Of a stretch of 64,000 bases of DNA, positions 545-7,457 are shown piece after piece. The stretch's first letter is position 1, and each line of letters opens with the position of its first letter. Source of the DNA: an uncultured delta proteobacterium. GTDB taxonomy: Bacteria > Desulfobacterota > Binatia > JACPRU01. The notes below the pieces were generated by a model, which saw only the letters and a list, made by a program, of their open reading frames with translations, was not told where the DNA came from and did not search any database. A program made the translations under genes and the position numbers. The stretch is taken from the NCBI GenBank assembly GCA_963745025.1, contig CAVUWD010000006.1, forward strand, positions 384,001 through 448,000, in the 5' to 3' direction.

Positions 545-1089
545 ATGCTGCCGCTCCGTCGTCTCGAAATCTGTCGCCACGCCCCAAGGGATCGGAGCTC
601 GGTGGTGACTGCCTGAGCCCGGAAGGCATTGAGCAAGCCCACCGGTTGGGGCGTTCACTTCGAGACGGTTACACGCATCTGTATTCCTCCGGCGCACAGC
701 GCGCGACCCAAACGCTCGCCTGCATCGTCGCCGGCATGGGTCGCCACGTGCTGAGGGGGGTCGTCGTCAGACCCGGTCTCGGATCACCTCGTGAGGCCGA
801 ATGGCGCGACACCGTTCGTGCCGCGGGGAGCACGAGCCTCGAAAGCTGCTCTCCCAGAATGAGTCTCTGGTCCGCGAGGAATCCGCACGCCTCGCGACGG
901 AGCTGCGCGCGATTCTCGCCGATCTTCCGGAAGGTGCTTACGGTCTCGCGATCGGCCACAGCCCGCTCACGGAATGCGGCGTTTATGGCCTTCACTGGAA
1001 CTTTGTATGCCCCGCTCAAGGAATGCGGTGGATTTTTGATCGTGCAGGTGAAGGGCGGGAGGCTTGATGTGGAAAGCATGGAAGCATGA
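545..1089 (+). pseudogene. Histidine phosphatase (phosphoglycerate mutase-like) family gene broken by frameshifts
   Basis: Pieces in alternating frames join to LEICRHAP / LSPEGIEQAHRLG..YTHLYSSGAQRATQT / ..GLAIGHSP, which gives the RH, LS.xG.xQA, SS..RA.QT and late His motifs. Confidence 0.6.
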
Positions 1090-1108
1090 TGCGTTTATCC
1101 ACGTTTAC

Positions 1109-2443
1109 CTAGCTAGGCCATTCCGCGATACGCTCGGCAGGAACACTTATTGTGAAGACGGAGCCCCCACCATCTCTAGGTTCGTACTTTAGCGTCCCTC
1201 CCCAGTTACGCACAAGGTTACTCGAAAGACCTAGCCCCGCGCCGAGGCCACCGCCGGGCCTCATTCCGACTTTCGGAGTGGACAGCTGAAACAATCGCTC
1301 ACGAGCCTCCGCCGATACCCCCTGGCCGTTATCTATGACAAAGACTTGCGCGCCGTCCCAACCTGGCACTTGGCTTGATCGTATCACTATCGCGCCCGTG
1401 CCGTTGTCCTCGACCGATTTTATGCTGTTCATTACAAGGTTTCTGAGCACATGATATGCATGTTCCCGCTTCACCCGCACGATCGGCCAACGGCCTTCAA
1501 TGGCTAGATTGACATTGCGTTCCTTGCATTCCGAGCTCAAATCCCGAGCGAGTTCACAGACCACATCCACCAATTTGTATGTAGGCGTCTCTTCGTTTTC
1601 CTGACCCAACTGGAACAAGCCCAGAGTGGCAACAGCAGATTCTACGCTGCGCAATCGGTCGTCGATCATGCCAATGAATCTCCCACAGCCAGTTAGATCC
1701 TTCTCTCGACAACTTCTAAGAGCTTCGCTGCACGCGCCGGAAATTGCCGCAAGCGGGCTATAGACATCATGCTGCACCAGGGCGGATAGCAACACCATAC
1801 CCTCTCTCGCCGTCTGCTCTTTGCTGTACGCAACCCCTAGTTCGCGCTTCTGCGTATACACTTCCAGTGTCTTTTCTCTCAGCTGCTCGGCTAGTGTCCC
1901 CGCTAAATATCCGAACACAAAAAACTGCAATATCGATCCAGCGAGCATTATCACCTTCCCCTCCGGCGTGAAATGCGCACCGAAAGCAACGTGCTGATGG
2001 GGTATTAACGCCATTTCCTCTGCCACGACCAGAATGGTGAGACAGAAAGCAGACCATGCTGCGAGTCGAAACGACGTCTTCATCGTGGAAAACGTAGCGG
2101 ACGTCACGATCATAATAATATACGCAACTATCGATATTGGAATATCCAAAGTGCCGAGACAATAGACGATTGCTGTCACGGCCAAAAGGTCGAAAGCCCA
2201 GTGAAAACGGAAATCATCCAGCGGATAACCTCTCTTCTTACCAATCCACCACAATAGAGGATTAACACAAATAAGCAGCGTCAACATTCCGTTTAGCCAC
2301 TGCAAGCCCGCTATTTGCTCACCTATTCCCCCTGCTTTTAGACTCACAAAGAGCGCAAGAAACACAGCCGCCGCCACGCCGCGGATCATCAACCCGCGCC
2401 TATAGATCGTGCGGCGATCTACAGACGACCACGTGACTTCCAT
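1109..2443 (-). CDS. Membrane-bound sensor histidine kinase (multi-TM sensor + HisKA + HATPase), HK2
   Basis: Several hydrophobic helices; H-box LVQHDVYSPL, N-box RNLVMNSIK, G1 IDNGQGVS, G2 GGGLGAGLGLS. Confidence 0.9.
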   Translation of the reverse strand: MEVTWSSVDRRTIYRRGLMIRGVAAAVFLALFVSLKAGGIGEQIAGLQWLNGMLTLLICVNPLLWWIGKKRGYPLDDFRFHWAFDLLAVTAIVYCLGTLDIPISIVAYIIMIVTSATFSTMKTSFRLAAWSAFCLTILVVAEEMALIPHQHVAFGAHFTPEGKVIMLAGSILQFFVFGYLAGTLAEQLREKTLEVYTQKRELGVAYSKEQTAREGMVLLSALVQHDVYSPLAAISGACSEALRSCREKDLTGCGRFIGMIDDRLRSVESAVATLGLFQLGQENEETPTYKLVDVVCELARDLSSECKERNVNLAIEGRWPIVRVKREHAYHVLRNLVMNSIKSVEDNGTGAIVIRSSQVPGWDGAQVFVIDNGQGVSAEARERLFQLSTPKVGMRPGGGLGAGLGLSSNLVRNWGGTLKYEPRDGGGSVFTISVPAERIAEWPS

Positions 2444-2485
2444 TGGGAGCTCGTGATGCTACTTGTTTTCTCGGTAACGCGAAAG

Positions 2486-3910
2486 CTAAGAGCGGCTTGC
2501 CGAGCCTACTTCTCGATTCGCGGTTTTCGGCACGGAGAAGCAAAACCGACTACCCACTCTCGACTGTGACTCGACCCAGATTCGGCCGCCCCACCTTTCG
2601 ACGATCCGCTTCGACATTGCTAATCCCACACCCTCTCCTTCCTGCACGACGCCTGCCACTGTTTGGTCGGGGCCCCGATGATACAGCTGAAATACGCGCT
2701 CGCGTTGTCCACTGCTGATCCCTATGCCGTTATCTGTGACTGAAATGATCCACTCCGTGCCCAACTGATGCGAAGCGATCTGTATTTGCGGATGTGGTTT
2801 GTCGCCCACGTACTTAATGGCGTTATCGATCAAGTTGGTCAAGACGTGCTTAACTTGCGTCTCACTTGCCATTATTGTGGGCAGATCTGTGACCGTGATG
2901 CGCACTCCTTTCGATTCTAACCGCGCGCTCTCCGCTCGAAGGATCGCCTGGGTCACTTCTGCGACATCAATAAGCCGTTCAGCCGCCTCTTGATGATCGA
3001 CACGAAACAGGCGGAGAAGCTGGACCAACATTTCGTTCATTCGTCTCGTGTCGTCAAGTAAATGCTCAGCATATCGCCTAGCTCGATCTCTTACCCCGCC
3101 CCCCTCGATCGCCAATAGACGTCGTGCAGTTTCGGTGGCACCGACTGAGACATTCTTTAGGTCATGGGTTACAATGTGGACAAACCCCTCGATTTCTGTG
3201 TTGCGTCTTTCCAGTTCACGAGTTCTCTCCGCAACTTTGGCTTCGAGAAACTTGTTCTGCGCCTCAATCTGATTTCGCGCACGACCTAGATCCGCGTTCG
3301 CGTACTTCAGTTGGTCCGCCAATGTCCCAGCAAGGTATGCGAAGATGTAGTAGAAGGCGACGGCAAATATCAGGGAAGCGATCCGCATCCCGTCTGTCAT
3401 GTCCATACCCCAGACGTGAGGAGGGTTTATCAGTTCGTAAAGCTGTGCGACTGAAAACACTATAGTCGTCACTGTTGCTGCGGAGGCGACCACAAACGAC
3501 GATCGCTTCGAAAGGAAGGTGGCAGACGTAACGACGATCATCACATACGCCAGGAAGCCGTAAGGGACATCGATTCCTCCGAGCAGATACAAAACCCCCG
3601 AAATCAAAATCAAATCTATCAACCAGTGAATGTAGAACTGGCGTAAAGGGAAAGCGGCTCTTACGGCGGCATACCAGTACAGTCCGTTCACAGCAACGAG
3701 ACAGCCGAGAATACTGAAAAGAGCTGAGAGTTGAAGCTCTGGGAGGTATGTAAGTTCGGCAATGCAAAAGAACACAAACGCGAATGCCCCGCTAACTCTC
3801 GAGCGAAATTGTAGACCGTCGGCAAATTTGTGACGCCGCTCGGGAAGCGGCTCATCAGGACACGGAAGAACGATGTTTAGGTATTCCGAAAACACCATCT
3901 TGCGCGTCAC
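2486..3910 (-). CDS. Membrane-bound sensor histidine kinase, HK1 (paralog of 1109-2443)
   Basis: TM region, coiled coil LEAKVAERTRELE, H-box IVTHDLKN, NLIDNAIKY, DNGIGI, GEGVGLAM. The start is GTG 3910 (directly after the upstream stop) or ATG 3898. Confidence 0.9.
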   Translation of the reverse strand: MTRKMVFSEYLNIVLPCPDEPLPERRHKFADGLQFRSRVSGAFAFVFFCIAELTYLPELQLSALFSILGCLVAVNGLYWYAAVRAAFPLRQFYIHWLIDLILISGVLYLLGGIDVPYGFLAYVMIVVTSATFLSKRSSFVVASAATVTTIVFSVAQLYELINPPHVWGMDMTDGMRIASLIFAVAFYYIFAYLAGTLADQLKYANADLGRARNQIEAQNKFLEAKVAERTRELERRNTEIEGFVHIVTHDLKNVSVGATETARRLLAIEGGGVRDRARRYAEHLLDDTRRMNEMLVQLLRLFRVDHQEAAERLIDVAEVTQAILRAESARLESKGVRITVTDLPTIMASETQVKHVLTNLIDNAIKYVGDKPHPQIQIASHQLGTEWIISVTDNGIGISSGQRERVFQLYHRGPDQTVAGVVQEGEGVGLAMSKRIVERWGGRIWVESQSRVGSRFCFSVPKTANREVGSASRS

Positions 3911-3911
3911 A

Positions 3912-4634
3912 TCAGGAAGGCCAGCGGTTGTTAAGAACCTCTCGCCCGTGTTGCCGCACACCCTGAAGCGCCTCGCTTATGATCCTCACATGGTCGACTG
4001 TTCTTAGGTTCGATGGCGCATGGAATCGGATAGCTTCGCCAAACGTGCTGAGAACACGGCTCCTGGGCAATGGAAGAGCGACCGCGACCCTAAAGTTAGT
4101 CATCCGAACCGCCGGCACTGCTAGTACGGCGAAAGGCACAACAGCAGCGCCAATTGACTTGGCGAGGCTTACGAGACCCGGGGGAACAGTGAAGTAGGGA
4201 CCGTGGCCATCTACAGCCACGAAGGCACTGCACCTTTCCTGTACAACCGTTCGTAGCGACCGAAGGCGAGCCGCTGCGTCCTGAACACTCACGGGCAGAA
4301 TCCTGGCTCCGAGCTCCGTGACTGCAGATTGCATGACAACGCCGCCGAATGAGTCGTCGGCAACGAAGGCAAACTGCTGCGCCAATCTGCGAAGGAAGGA
4401 TGAGGCAAATCCTATGGAAAGCAGCGCCACATGATCCGAAATCCAAAGGGCATAAATTACGGGACCATCTTGCCGTTGCTTCTCGAAAAATTCCGAAATA
4501 CAGGGGTCGTCTCCACCGCAAACAGCCCCGTCAGGGAATGAGAATGCAACCCTCAGTGAGCGCCCAATCAATCTAAGGTATCCACATAAAACCACCGAAG
4601 CGATCCTGGCAGAAACCGTAGCGAGAGATCCCAC
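3912..4634 (-). CDS. DUF374-like / lysophospholipid acyltransferase-superfamily protein
   Basis: Pattern IYALW...; AFVAVDGHGPYFTVPPGLVSLAKSIGAAVVP; LPLPRSRV..FGEAI resembles DUF374 (DGPxGP..VKPG...LA...G.PIVP), but is divergent. Confidence 0.65.
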   Translation of the reverse strand: MGSLATVSARIASVVLCGYLRLIGRSLRVAFSFPDGAVCGGDDPCISEFFEKQRQDGPVIYALWISDHVALLSIGFASSFLRRLAQQFAFVADDSFGGVVMQSAVTELGARILPVSVQDAAARLRSLRTVVQERCSAFVAVDGHGPYFTVPPGLVSLAKSIGAAVVPFAVLAVPAVRMTNFRVAVALPLPRSRVLSTFGEAIRFHAPSNLRTVDHVRIISEALQGVRQHGREVLNNRWPS

Positions 4635-4646
4635 GTCCAGGCAGGT

Positions 4647-4883
4647 CTAGTCAGAAAGGCGATCAAAAAGGCGCTCTAAATCTTGTACCGTCACCAGCGT
4701 AACGACGTCCTCCTCTTTGATTACAATGTCCAACTCCTTCTCTGCGGCAAAAATCAGATTCAATGCGATAATCGAGTCCATTCCGAGGTCTTCGCGAAGC
4801 CGCTGGCTTGGCAACAACGCACTCAAGTCGACGTTGAGCTCCCTGGACAGAATCAGTCTAGCTCGATCAACCAGCTCACGCAC
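4647..4883 (-). CDS. Acyl carrier protein
   Basis: 78 aa and acidic, with the phosphopantetheine motif DLGMDSII. Its start overlaps the ketosynthase stop. Confidence 0.9.
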   Translation of the reverse strand: MRELVDRARLILSRELNVDLSALLPSQRLREDLGMDSIIALNLIFAAEKELDIVIKEEDVVTLVTVQDLERLFDRLSD

Positions 4884-6198
4884 AGCTACCGACGTCCCTT
4901 ATCACCAAGGCAGCGTTCCGAGATCCGAACCCGAAGGTAGGCGATAGCGCGGTGCGAATCTTGGCCTTTCGCGCCTCATTCGGTACGAAATCGAAACCCT
5001 GGCGCAAATCTTCCGGAGCTAGGTTGATCGTAGGAGGCAGCGTGGACGATTCGATCGCTCGCGCGCAGGCAATCAGCTCCAGAGCACCCGCAGCTCCCAT
5101 GGAATGTCCGATCATAGACTTGATTGAGCTCAGTGGAATTTGGGGAACCCGCTCCCCAAAGACGTGCCGCATGATATCGAGTTCGATCGGGTCGTTTCCC
5201 TTCGACCCGACCGCATGAGCGTTAACGTAATCGACTTTGTCAGGGGTCACGTTAGCCTGCTCTAGTGCCAAATAGATCGCCCGCACGCCTTCATCGCCCG
5301 TTGGCAGCGGGGAGAAGCCATGAAAGGCATCGGACGTCGCAGAGTACCCAGAAATCTCAGCTAGCGGTTCCGCACCGCGCTCGGCGGCAGCGTCTTCAGC
5401 TTCCAGAATACACGCTCCGGCTCCTTCGCTCATGACGAAGCCGTCGCGAGCAGCTGCGAACGGGCGAGAGGCGCGCTCAGGACCGTCGTTCTGACGCGAC
5501 ATAACTCCTAGGCGGTCAAATGCCGAAAATAAGAAGGGCTCAAGTGGTGCCTCTGCGCCACCCACGATCGCGCGGTCGATCAAGCCCGCACGGATATGCA
5601 ACAACGCCAGGCCGATAGCGTCAGTGGCCGAGGTACACGCGGTGGAAACGCAGATCGCCGGACCGCGAATATCGAATTGAATCGCTATCTGCGTAGCAAC
5701 GACGCCGGCGTACGACTGAGCTGGGAACAAGGGATGAATCCGGCGTATCCCCTTCTCGAGAAACACCGCATGATTCTCGGCTGCATAAGAGAACGTACCC
5801 ACCGACGTGCCGAAGAAGACCCCGATCCTCCTGGAGTCGGTCCCTTGAATGGAAAGGCGAGCATCCTCGAGAGCCATTCGTGCGGCAGCAACACCTAGCT
5901 GCATGCACCGAGCACTTCCGGATATGGCCTTCTGCGACATGAAGTCAGCGGGACGGAAATCTGGGATCTGGCCCGCCACGCGGGTCCCGTAAGGGGTAGG
6001 ATCAAAGGCAGTGAGCGGTCCAATGCCTGGCCTTCCAGCGACGAGATTCTCCCAAAAGCAGTCGAGGCCCGTTCCGTAGACGGTCACGCATCCCATCCCC
6101 GTGACCACCACGCGCCGATCACGGCCCCCCTGGGCAACGGCGACAGATTTGTGCGCCCCCTCCCCCCCATGACGATCGCTCCTGGTTGTAATTGACAT
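4876..6198 (-). CDS. Beta-ketoacyl-ACP synthase II (FabF/KS-alpha-like), divergent
   Basis: RRVVVTGMG; catalytic Cys in STACTSA; His in VNAHAVG and KSMIGHSMGAAG; C-terminal FGFGSRNA. The exact start is uncertain. Confidence 0.9.
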   Translation of the reverse strand: MSITTRSDRHGGEGAHKSVAVAQGGRDRRVVVTGMGCVTVYGTGLDCFWENLVAGRPGIGPLTAFDPTPYGTRVAGQIPDFRPADFMSQKAISGSARCMQLGVAAARMALEDARLSIQGTDSRRIGVFFGTSVGTFSYAAENHAVFLEKGIRRIHPLFPAQSYAGVVATQIAIQFDIRGPAICVSTACTSATDAIGLALLHIRAGLIDRAIVGGAEAPLEPFLFSAFDRLGVMSRQNDGPERASRPFAAARDGFVMSEGAGACILEAEDAAAERGAEPLAEISGYSATSDAFHGFSPLPTGDEGVRAIYLALEQANVTPDKVDYVNAHAVGSKGNDPIELDIMRHVFGERVPQIPLSSIKSMIGHSMGAAGALELIACARAIESSTLPPTINLAPEDLRQGFDFVPNEARKAKIRTALSPTFGFGSRNAALVIRDVGSCA

Positions 6199-6338
6199 CA
6201 CGTTGCGCGATTATTTTCTGGTGTCGCGCCGAACTCTTACGCTTTAATTTCGCCCTTCTGGGGGTTGCAAGTCAAGAGAAGCTCGTGTCGCGAGGCGCGA
6301 CAGGGTTTTAAAAGGTTTCCCTAAGAGGAGGCAGACAA

Positions 6339-7457
6339 CTGAGGGTCCTCGTTGTTGAAGACAACCGTCGCCACGCTGAGCTGATTTCGGACGAGCTCCA
6401 TGACAGCGCCATGGCGACGCATGTGGATTGGGCGGAGACAGGGGCCGATGCCCTAGAAATCCTGGCGGCTCAGCCAATCGACCTAATCGTTCTCGACTAC
6501 CGCCTTCCCGACACCGACGGGATCGAGTTCATGAAGGCGCTGCGTTCTCGCGGAATTAACACGCCGATCATCTTCGTGACTACCGCCGACTCGGTCCAGC
6601 TGGCCGTCGAGGCCATGAAGCTCGGCGCCGAAGACTTCGTGCAGAAGCAGGAAGGATACCTCGCGGTGCTTCCCCTACTCGTCCGCGAGGCTCTCGAGCG
6701 GCAACGCCTTCGGAACGAGAAAACTCGCCTCGAGGCCGAGCTCCGCCAGGCCGATCGTCTCGCCTCGCTCGGCATTCTCGCTGCAGGGCTCGCGCACAAC
6801 ATCAACAACCGCCTGACCTCGCTCAAAACCTTCTTCGATCTCATTCCCCAGCGTTACGACGATCCCTACTTCCGCGACGAGTTCCTCAAGACCTGCCAGA
6901 TGGACCTGGATAAGATCGCTCTCCTCGTTCGCGAGTTGACGCGCTACGCCTTCACGGAAGACTCACCCCGGCCGCTGCAGCCGCTGACGGACCTCATCAT
7001 GCGGGCGATCGGCCACCTCGACGACGAGATCCACAAGAAGCAACTCCGCATCCGCACCGAGTTTGCCGAGGTACCGCTGCTTCCTCTCGATCCCGAGGGA
7101 GTCAAGCAGCTGTTCATCAACCTGCTGAAGAACGCGATTCAGGCGAGCCCGGTCGGCGGTGAGATTCTCGTCAGCCTGGCTCTCGAAACCCACGCCGAGC
7201 CGCAGATCGTCGCTCGCGTGCGAGACCACGGGCCGGGACTGCCGGCCCAGATGCGCGAACGCATCTTCGATCCGTTCTTCACGACCAAGGATCACGGCCT
7301 CGGAATCGGGCTCTACCTCTGTCACAAGATCGCCAGCTTGCACCGGGGCCGGGTCGAGGCGGGGAACCCGATAGGCGAAGGGGCCGAGTTCGCGGTCTAC
7401 CTACCGGTCGCACCGAGCGAAGAAGGCGCTGCGCCTTCGTCCGAAATGATGAGCTGA
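6339..7457 (+). CDS. Cytoplasmic hybrid protein: N-terminal receiver + histidine kinase (probable CTG start)
   Basis: The receiver beta1 strand and acidic pocket (RVLVVED) lie upstream of ATG 6411. SD AAGAGGAGG (6323-6331) precedes an in-frame CTG at 6339, and there is an in-frame TAA at 6309. Other motifs: LDYRLPD, AHNINNRL, NLLKNAIQA, DHGPG, FFTTK, GLGIGL. Confidence 0.88.
   Translation: MRVLVVEDNRRHAELISDELHDSAMATHVDWAETGADALEILAAQPIDLIVLDYRLPDTDGIEFMKALRSRGINTPIIFVTTADSVQLAVEAMKLGAEDFVQKQEGYLAVLPLLVREALERQRLRNEKTRLEAELRQADRLASLGILAAGLAHNINNRLTSLKTFFDLIPQRYDDPYFRDEFLKTCQMDLDKIALLVRELTRYAFTEDSPRPLQPLTDLIMRAIGHLDDEIHKKQLRIRTEFAEVPLLPLDPEGVKQLFINLLKNAIQASPVGGEILVSLALETHAEPQIVARVRDHGPGLPAQMRERIFDPFFTTKDHGLGIGLYLCHKIASLHRGRVEAGNPIGEGAEFAVYLPVAPSEEGAAPSSEMMS

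Follow-up and report, generated by a model that had tools for sequence, protein, structure and literature searches.

The stretch studied here (the window, 64,000 nt of contig CAVUWD010000006.1, assembly GCA_963745025.1) comes from an uncultured delta proteobacterium of the Binatia, and all positions follow its numbering. It carries a compact cassette of genes for a stand-alone ketosynthase (KS), an acyl carrier protein (ACP), an acyltransferase-like (AT-like) protein without the catalytic histidine, membrane histidine kinases (HKs) and a soluble receiver-histidine kinase (REC-HK). The cassette is real, old and under selection, and it belongs to no known family. It has the look of a lipid-cue synthesis and sensing unit of a kind that has not been described. 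We see about an even chance that the cassette is self-contained in this respect: the KS and ACP would make a dedicated acyl product, which would be sensed in the membrane by HK1 and relayed. A preliminary description of the locus had proposed such a unit for lipid-cue synthesis and sensing. This is still the best reading, but the acyltransferase role, the kinase pair and the analogy to PpyS and DarB failed, and the low GC content does not indicate recent import.

Gene content of the cassette

The preliminary description placed five minus-strand genes and one plus-strand gene at this locus. All six were recovered where it had placed them, by an open reading frame (ORF) check and by Pfam and NCBIfam searches:

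4876..6201, minus strand: KS, a FabF-type stand-alone ketosynthase with a clade of its own (PF00109 and PF02801)
4647..4883, minus strand: ACP, a dedicated acyl carrier protein (PF00550), whose LGMDS motif holds the phosphopantetheine serine, Ser38
3912..4634, minus strand: AT-like protein, histidine-less, derived from DUF374/LpxJ, with an LPLAT fold
2486..3910, minus strand: HK1, a six-helix PilS-like membrane histidine kinase (PF25323, 6TM_PilS, and HATPase)
1109..2443, minus strand: HK2, a diverged paralogue of HK1 (HATPase)
6339..7457, plus strand: REC-HK, a soluble receiver-histidine kinase hybrid (Response_reg and HATPase) with a probable CTG start
6202..6338: divergent intergenic region of 137 bp between KS and REC-HK

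From KS through HK2, the minus-strand genes are separated by an 8-bp overlap and then by gaps of 12, 1 and 42 bp. HK1 starts with the GTG at 3910, 1 bp past the stop of the AT-like gene. As first described, the unit itself holds no reductase, dehydratase, chain-length factor, cyclase or exporter. The promoter scan gave no sigma-70-like site in 6202..6338, and promoter and terminator scans at the locus returned signals at or below chance.

Conservation and age of the cassette

A profile of the AT-like protein was searched against 301 genomes of the class, and all 35 matching loci were fetched. The 35 genomes were confined to three families, with 4 of 7 genomes plus the window's genome in one, 12 of 20 in another and 18 of 19 in the third. 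Across 17 further families, with 254 genomes, the profile search found none. In every one of the 35 loci the AT-like gene was followed by the same six-helix HK, with a second KS intervening in three. KS and ACP lay upstream in 33 loci, and REC-HK was adjacent in 34, once as a fragment at a contig end; the misses were contig ends. Kinases homologous to those of the window were linked to KS and ACP genes in other genomes, as the preliminary description had anticipated, both in this set and in a reverse search with the kinase.

The general order was KS-ACP-AT-like-HK-REC-HK in one operon, with a single membrane kinase and one or two REC-HKs. The kinase pair and the divergent REC-HK, which had been presented as features of the system, did not generalize. 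Both were limited to the window's family, where the second kinase arose by duplication. HK2, which is 30% identical to HK1, is also under purifying selection (dN/dS 0.17).

Spacing was tight throughout, in counts that omit four frameshifted loci. HK and REC-HK overlapped or lay at most 25 bp apart in 27/27 loci, KS and ACP lay within 25 bp in 27/28, and the AT-like gene lay within 25 bp of the HK gene in 19/29, overlapping or abutting it in 13/29. The chromosomal site of the cassette differs from family to family, and the five genes alone stay together in all three while every flanking gene changes. The order survived inversion or duplication of REC-HK and duplication of KS or HK. In quick trees, KS, HK and REC-HK formed one clade each (SH-aLRT 99, 100 and 97), with subclades that follow the host families. 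The second KSs between the AT-like gene and HK (L023:2082-3386, L103:2490-3734 and one in L109) were of the cassette type and formed a sub-branch of their own.

The GC content was 0.50-0.60 over 1001-6500, versus 0.62-0.70 in flanking 500-base segments, as originally noticed. The GC content at third codon positions (GC3) placed the five operon genes within the lowest 0.3% of the 4003 called genes in the genome; that of REC-HK was ordinary, at the 20th percentile. The dip was absent at several other cassette loci, for example L029, L035, L036, L040 and L097. It is no mark of recent import, because apbC-priA adjoins the cassette in 5/5 members of the window's family and the gene trees follow the host families, and a recent horizontal island was rejected for the same reasons. 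Values of dN/dS between 0.08 and 0.28 across the six genes indicate purifying selection on all of them.

Two relatives of the window's locus deserve mention. In L021:5934-12295, from the same genus, several one-base insertions occur in KS, HK1, HK2 and REC-HK and none in ACP and the AT-like gene; these are assembly noise or decay. In L027:7905-9386, the AT-like protein and the HK1 membrane domain share one stop-free reading frame, in a locus that is otherwise frameshifted and an assembly that is error-prone.

The ketosynthase and its carrier protein

Homology of the window KS begins at about residue 29, and Cys189, His329, Lys361 and His366 are intact. The Cys-His-His-Lys catalytic set was kept in 32/32 cassette KSs, which share the family signature FGFG(S/A)RN. 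They have the fold class and the catalytic set in common with FabF (KAS II), but differ from it in several ways. Against TIGR03150, the window KS scored 432.5 bits, below the cut-off of 493.75, and the genome's own fabF scored 638; the cassette KS of G034 just exceeded the cut-off, at 499. In a quick KS tree, for which the careful search was unfinished, the 32 cassette rows lay on one side of the supported branch, apart from 18 FabF rows. Two KS-alpha rows, two chain-length factor (CLF) rows and NodE also fell outside the cassette clade. That the KS falls apart from housekeeping FabF is what the preliminary description required of its reading. A housekeeping FabF identity was rejected, given the score below the cut-off, the separate clade and the true fabF elsewhere in the genome.

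The differences reach the acyl pocket. Relative to E. coli FabF, G107 is replaced by S or A, A193 mostly by P and G198 by L, and in 32/32 sequences I138 is replaced by Y or H and T403 by R. In FabF, chain length is limited by a gate formed by I108 and F202, which neighbour the changed residues (PMC9006962). The bulkier residues hint at a chain other than a standard membrane fatty acid, and we infer that the pocket changes may alter the KS product. Elsewhere, the window's genome encodes FabD, a separate acpP-like gene and three phosphopantetheinyl transferases (PPTases). A different stand-alone KS type was seen in family f2 (L241-L243), with the unusual motifs ALHGT and GHPQG; it lacks an FGFG match, and no kinase lies close to it.

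An acyltransferase-like protein without its histidine

The AT-like ORF had no Pfam match at E<=0.1 and no match to a solved structure by sequence. Against a profile of 20 bona fide DUF374 proteins it aligned end to end (profile-profile comparison, 99.9% probability, E 6e-33). PF04028 matched only 4 of 24 AT-like members (best E 0.02, short of the cut-off), versus 20/20 control DUF374 proteins. The predicted structure (pLDDT 91) resembles GPAT, PatA, PlsC and LpxM; for GPAT (1iuq) the match had Z 12.9 and rmsd 4.3 over 202 aligned positions.

The relative with known chemistry is LpxJ, in which W60, H61, D86, D132, W172 and D173 are each needed, H61 is likely the base, and a His61Ala change abolishes activity (PMC6148475). 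The position equivalent to His61, in the WH motif, was a histidine in 0/97 AT-like members. A histidine occurred somewhere within residues 62-70 in 37/97, at no fixed position. The equivalent of Asp132 was kept in 97/97 (D142) and that of Trp60 in 82/97 (W64). By alignment, Asp86 (at G97) and Trp172-Asp173 (at F181-R182) are all lost; aspartate is outside the six commonest residues at columns 97 and 182, and Asp86 varies also among His-bearing relatives. Residues D93, G98, D142 and Y147 are invariant or nearly so, and R123 is found in 88/97. The gene is under purifying selection (dN/dS 0.27), yet it is the fastest-evolving of the six.

Thus, the AT-like protein shares clear homology, the LPLAT fold and the Trp60 and Asp132 equivalents with the LpxJ/DUF374 late acyltransferases. 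It differs from them in the missing catalytic histidine, in the newly conserved DD, R123 and Y147, and in its constant linkage to the kinase gene, seen in all 35 genomes. When a library with 1.84 billion representatives was searched, the group with the best scores was without the WH histidine, and WH proteins began near E 1e-20. The histidine-less branch comprised 105 clusters at E<=1e-30. The preliminary description had called this protein an acyltransferase. It is not a canonical one, because the catalytic histidine is absent in 97/97 members and the gene is missing from the otherwise intact cassette of G508. Judged by its residues, it is not to be classed as LpxJ, and would be either non-catalytic or of other chemistry. 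The window's genome has two canonical DUF374 genes elsewhere. The closest His-bearing relatives (P0124-P0155) include a DUF374 subgroup in which RG replaces the usual DG motif.

Membrane kinases and receiver-kinase

HK1 scored 32.2 bits against PF25323 (cut-off 27). It has six hydrophobic membrane helices and no periplasmic domain; the H-box histidine, His249, and the ATP-binding boxes are intact. In the membrane part, W79, F87, H95 and D99 were invariant in 29/29 aligned orthologues. The H95/D99 pair was not generally retained in seven more distant six-helix kinases that were inspected, which makes His95/Asp99 a plausible candidate ligand site. A fold search with HK1 gave matches limited to the kinase core. 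Two further families of the class have distant six-helix kinases for which an MMPL/sterol-sensing transporter is the fusion partner or the gene directly before (L233:5662-9336 and L234:4801-9169).

In REC-HK, the acceptor aspartate, the lysine and the H-box histidine are invariant and the ATP boxes are intact; there is no DNA-binding domain. The gene first described is present, but it probably does not start at ATG 6411. From this codon, the first strand and helix of the receiver are missing (Pfam positions 24-100), and from CTG 6339 the receiver matches Pfam from position 1. A CTG lies 7-9 nt after a GGAGG in three of five relatives inspected (L021, L022, L054); L025 and L027 differ. The start is probably the CTG at 6339-6341, which follows a GGAGG. 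No DNA-binding response regulator was conserved next to the cassette, in the loci or in their annotated neighbours, so the output would lie elsewhere.

Reverse search, controls and wider range

The reverse search used a kinase profile on the 301 genomes of the class. It recovered largely the same genomes as the AT-like profile, plus two, G508 and G010. Among 33 metagenome loci with the HK, some of which duplicate genome loci, 24 carried KS, ACP or AT-like genes upstream, six had no room for them and three were without. Of these three, one had a transposase, one was broken and one, L175, was kinase-only. The transposase-like ORF (L166:2-1045) lies directly upstream of HK, where the lipid genes would be.

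Control loci had short flanks and included kin that are not independent. A KS was found in the flanks of 0/106 other kinase loci (median locus 3.7 and 7.7 kb). A receiver-kinase was found within ~6 kb of 2/12 other KS loci, and within 1.5 kb of 0/30 fabF loci.

Beyond the class, no family-level match to the AT-like protein was found in 400 genomes of the phylum. None was found in 251 genomes of the acidobacterial centre's phylum either; the two hits there, at 80-85 bits, proved to be canonical WH proteins. In 200 and 201 genomes of those phyla, no match to the HK extended over the membrane domain. A cassette-level KS was not found among 151 genomes, a tally that includes G721, and the best score, 484 bits, was at FabF level. 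The KS signature was also scanned in 185,579 species, each represented by a single genome. It gave 39 stretches, 28 of them in a KS (26 genomes) and 11 by chance, and all 26 genomes coincided with this class. The pattern misses some members, and the result therefore reads "not found" and not "absent". The first Atlas match for the AT-like protein was a 78-member cluster without Pfam assignment, in which Gemmatimonadota was the commonest phylum (13 members with known phylum).

A proposed mechanism and its alternatives

In the mechanism that we favor, a housekeeping PPTase and FabD, both encoded elsewhere in the genome, would charge the dedicated ACP. The KS, with its catalytic residues in place, would then extend an acyl chain by condensation with malonyl-ACP, which would give a beta-ketoacyl product or a short polyketone. 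The AT-like protein, here an acyl-ACP-handling fold without the catalytic histidine and not a standard lipid acyltransferase, may dock the loaded ACP at the membrane and hand over or free the chain beside the kinase. The product would bind the six-helix domain of HK1 around His95/Asp99 and alter kinase activity. HK1 would phosphorylate the receiver of REC-HK, whose kinase would in turn act on a regulator encoded elsewhere; the residues for this transfer are intact and the genes are co-inherited. The product would be released and, like the Phc signal, could pass from cell to cell. Gene presence, linkage, catalytic residues and the missing histidine are observed, and every biochemical step is inferred from them. 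The kinase-only remnants in G010 and L175 fit with this mechanism, in that they resemble listeners. The linkage, tight spacing, single clades, purifying selection and control counts above also favor it, as do the phcB-phcS-phcR layout and an MMPL transporter that adjoins 13/18 loci in one family and 2/13 in another.

Several observations weigh against this mechanism. The unit has no thioesterase, cyclase or intact transferase to explain product release. G508 carries KS-ACP-HK-REC-HK without the AT-like gene. G010, a 100% complete genome, has HK-REC-HK without a cassette KS, ACP or AT-like gene, and the metagenome contig L175 likewise has HK and REC-HK without any of the three; the kinases persist alone in both and can therefore be retained without the synthase. 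In G010 the kinase nests within the cassette clade on a long branch, which suggests that its lipid genes were lost. The sensor domain's named relative, PilS, detects a membrane protein and not a lipid (PMC6058289). The MMPL adjacency may be chance, since an MMPL gene adjoins the cassette in 0/5 loci of the window's family although the window's genome has many such genes (11 tblastn regions). All cassettes occur in one class and probably have one origin, so the counts above are not independent.

A phosphorelay could also read a protein-bound acyl chain directly, with nothing released. The KS would load its private ACP according to acyl and malonyl supply, the dead AT-like protein would present the acyl-ACP to the membrane kinase, and the cassette would convert fatty-acid flux into a phosphorelay signal. 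We consider this tentative and somewhat unlikely. It would account for a unit without a releasing enzyme, and for an AT-like protein that has lost the equivalents of His61, D86 and W172/D173 of LpxJ and is still under selection. It would also suit the overlapping or abutting AT-like and HK genes and their shared frame in the error-prone assembly of L027, and mitochondrial acyl-ACP has been described as a signal of metabolic state (PMC9006962). However, G508 lost the AT-like gene while KS, ACP, HK and REC-HK stayed, and the kinases of G010 and L175 persist without any ACP. Longer, fused AT-like proteins were not found at E<=1e-15, in what is a weak test.

The kinases might instead regulate the enzymes and not read their product. 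They would sense a property of the membrane and control the synthesis of a special acyl chain by KS and ACP, which the AT-like protein would transfer to a lipid by histidine-free chemistry. The descent of this protein from lipid A acyltransferases, with the Asp132 equivalent in 97/97 members, agrees with such remodelling, as do a sensor that consists of a membrane domain only, distant HK relatives fused or adjacent to MMPL transporters, and an HK that outlives the loss of the enzymes in G010. We nevertheless regard it as doubtful, and unlikely overall: no DNA-binding response regulator is conserved beside the cassette, loss of His61 abolishes LpxJ activity (PMC6148475), and two canonical DUF374 genes are already available in the genome. 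The unit also has no reductase or dehydratase, though housekeeping ones could serve, as for NodEF. Finally, a spare KS-ACP and a kinase pair, once neighbours, could be co-inherited without functional coupling. A single origin within one class would allow this, and other neighbours are also conserved within a family, such as a histidine-phosphatase in 16/18 loci. This last explanation is highly improbable, as these five genes alone stay together across three families while the flanks change, stop and start codons overlap, and duplicates of KS, HK and REC-HK remain inside the cassette.

Comparison with known systems

By analogy, the cassette would work most like an acyl-signal synthase with its receptor, wired as in phcB-phcS-phcR with a different chemistry. 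In Ralstonia, the single operon phcB-phcS-phcR-phcQ likewise encodes the synthase of an acyl signal together with a sensor kinase and PhcR, a soluble receiver-kinase that has no DNA-binding domain (PMC8578825). The Phc synthase, PhcB, is a methyltransferase, whereas the cassette has a KS, an ACP and a histidine-less LPLAT protein and no PhcB-type enzyme. A lone receiver like PhcQ was not found among the conserved neighbours of the cassette, and the likeness is one of layout.

Other systems share single parts. LqsA/LqsS also uses a fatty-acid-derived cue read by a membrane kinase, and the Rpf, Cqs and Lqs synthases are crotonase-type or pyridoxal phosphate enzymes. The cassette differs from these systems in its dedicated KS and ACP, which they lack. 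For RpfF/RpfC and CqsA/CqsS the likeness is the same, a fatty-acid-derived cue read by a membrane kinase (PMC13220807, for RpfC and CqsS). NodF/NodE (with NodA) likewise pairs a dedicated ACP with a stand-alone KS to furnish a signal with its acyl chain (PMC9048898), but NodE falls outside the cassette clade, the Nod receptor is in the plant, and the Nod operon has no kinase. PilS has the six-helix sensor without a periplasmic domain, and HK1 scores above the PF25323 cut-off (PMC6058289); unlike PilS, HK1 has no PilR-type sigma-54 activator or pilin gene beside it, and its neighbours are REC-HK in 34/35 loci and lipid genes. The preliminary description had offered PpyS (photopyrone) and DarB (dialkylresorcinol) as precedents, since there too a stand-alone KS makes a signal. 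The parallel fails, because PpyS is a FabH-like enzyme and LuxR-type receptors read both signals (PMC7154725), whereas the cassette KS is FabF-type (PF00109/PF02801) and no LuxR gene was seen beside the 12 annotated loci. Type II polyketide synthases combine KS-alpha, CLF and ACP. They differ from the cassette, as no CLF was found in 35 loci and the cassette KS lies outside the KS-alpha clade; the second KSs of L023 and L103 fall inside the cassette clade with the catalytic set kept.

The literature searched (titles and abstract starts, with subscription papers and bioRxiv supplements outside its scope) gave no description of the cassette, and the terms kinase, two-component, ketoacyl, quorum and polyketide do not occur in the main text of the Binatota genome survey (PMC8262859). 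The cassette has five genes and can be fully reconstituted, and it is a candidate source of a new lipid signal of bacteria, or a candidate acyl sensor, from a lineage that is both uncultured and widespread. If this is true, FabF-type ketosynthases would join the enzymes that make histidine-kinase cues, or a kinase would be shown to read acyl-ACP; a tethered reading of the latter kind would be a categorically new system. The cassette also points to a candidate ligand source for the PilS-like membrane domain, with a testable site at His95/Asp99, and the AT-like protein adds a new histidine-less branch to the LpxJ family. The natural deletion variants (without the AT-like gene, with kinases only, or with two KSs) are ready-made controls.

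Neighbouring genes

Just downstream of HK2, the window holds two damaged genes. At 106-540, a nitronate-monooxygenase-like gene is without codons 86-253 of its orthologues, and at 545-1089 a gene that by eye resembles a histidine-phosphatase is split by frameshifts; this damage is decay or assembly error. In family f10, the histidine-phosphatase gene (PF00300) present in 16/18 loci, for example L032:6321-6839, is one that we take to be SixA-like. In all six annotated loci of this family it precedes the cassette and shares its strand.

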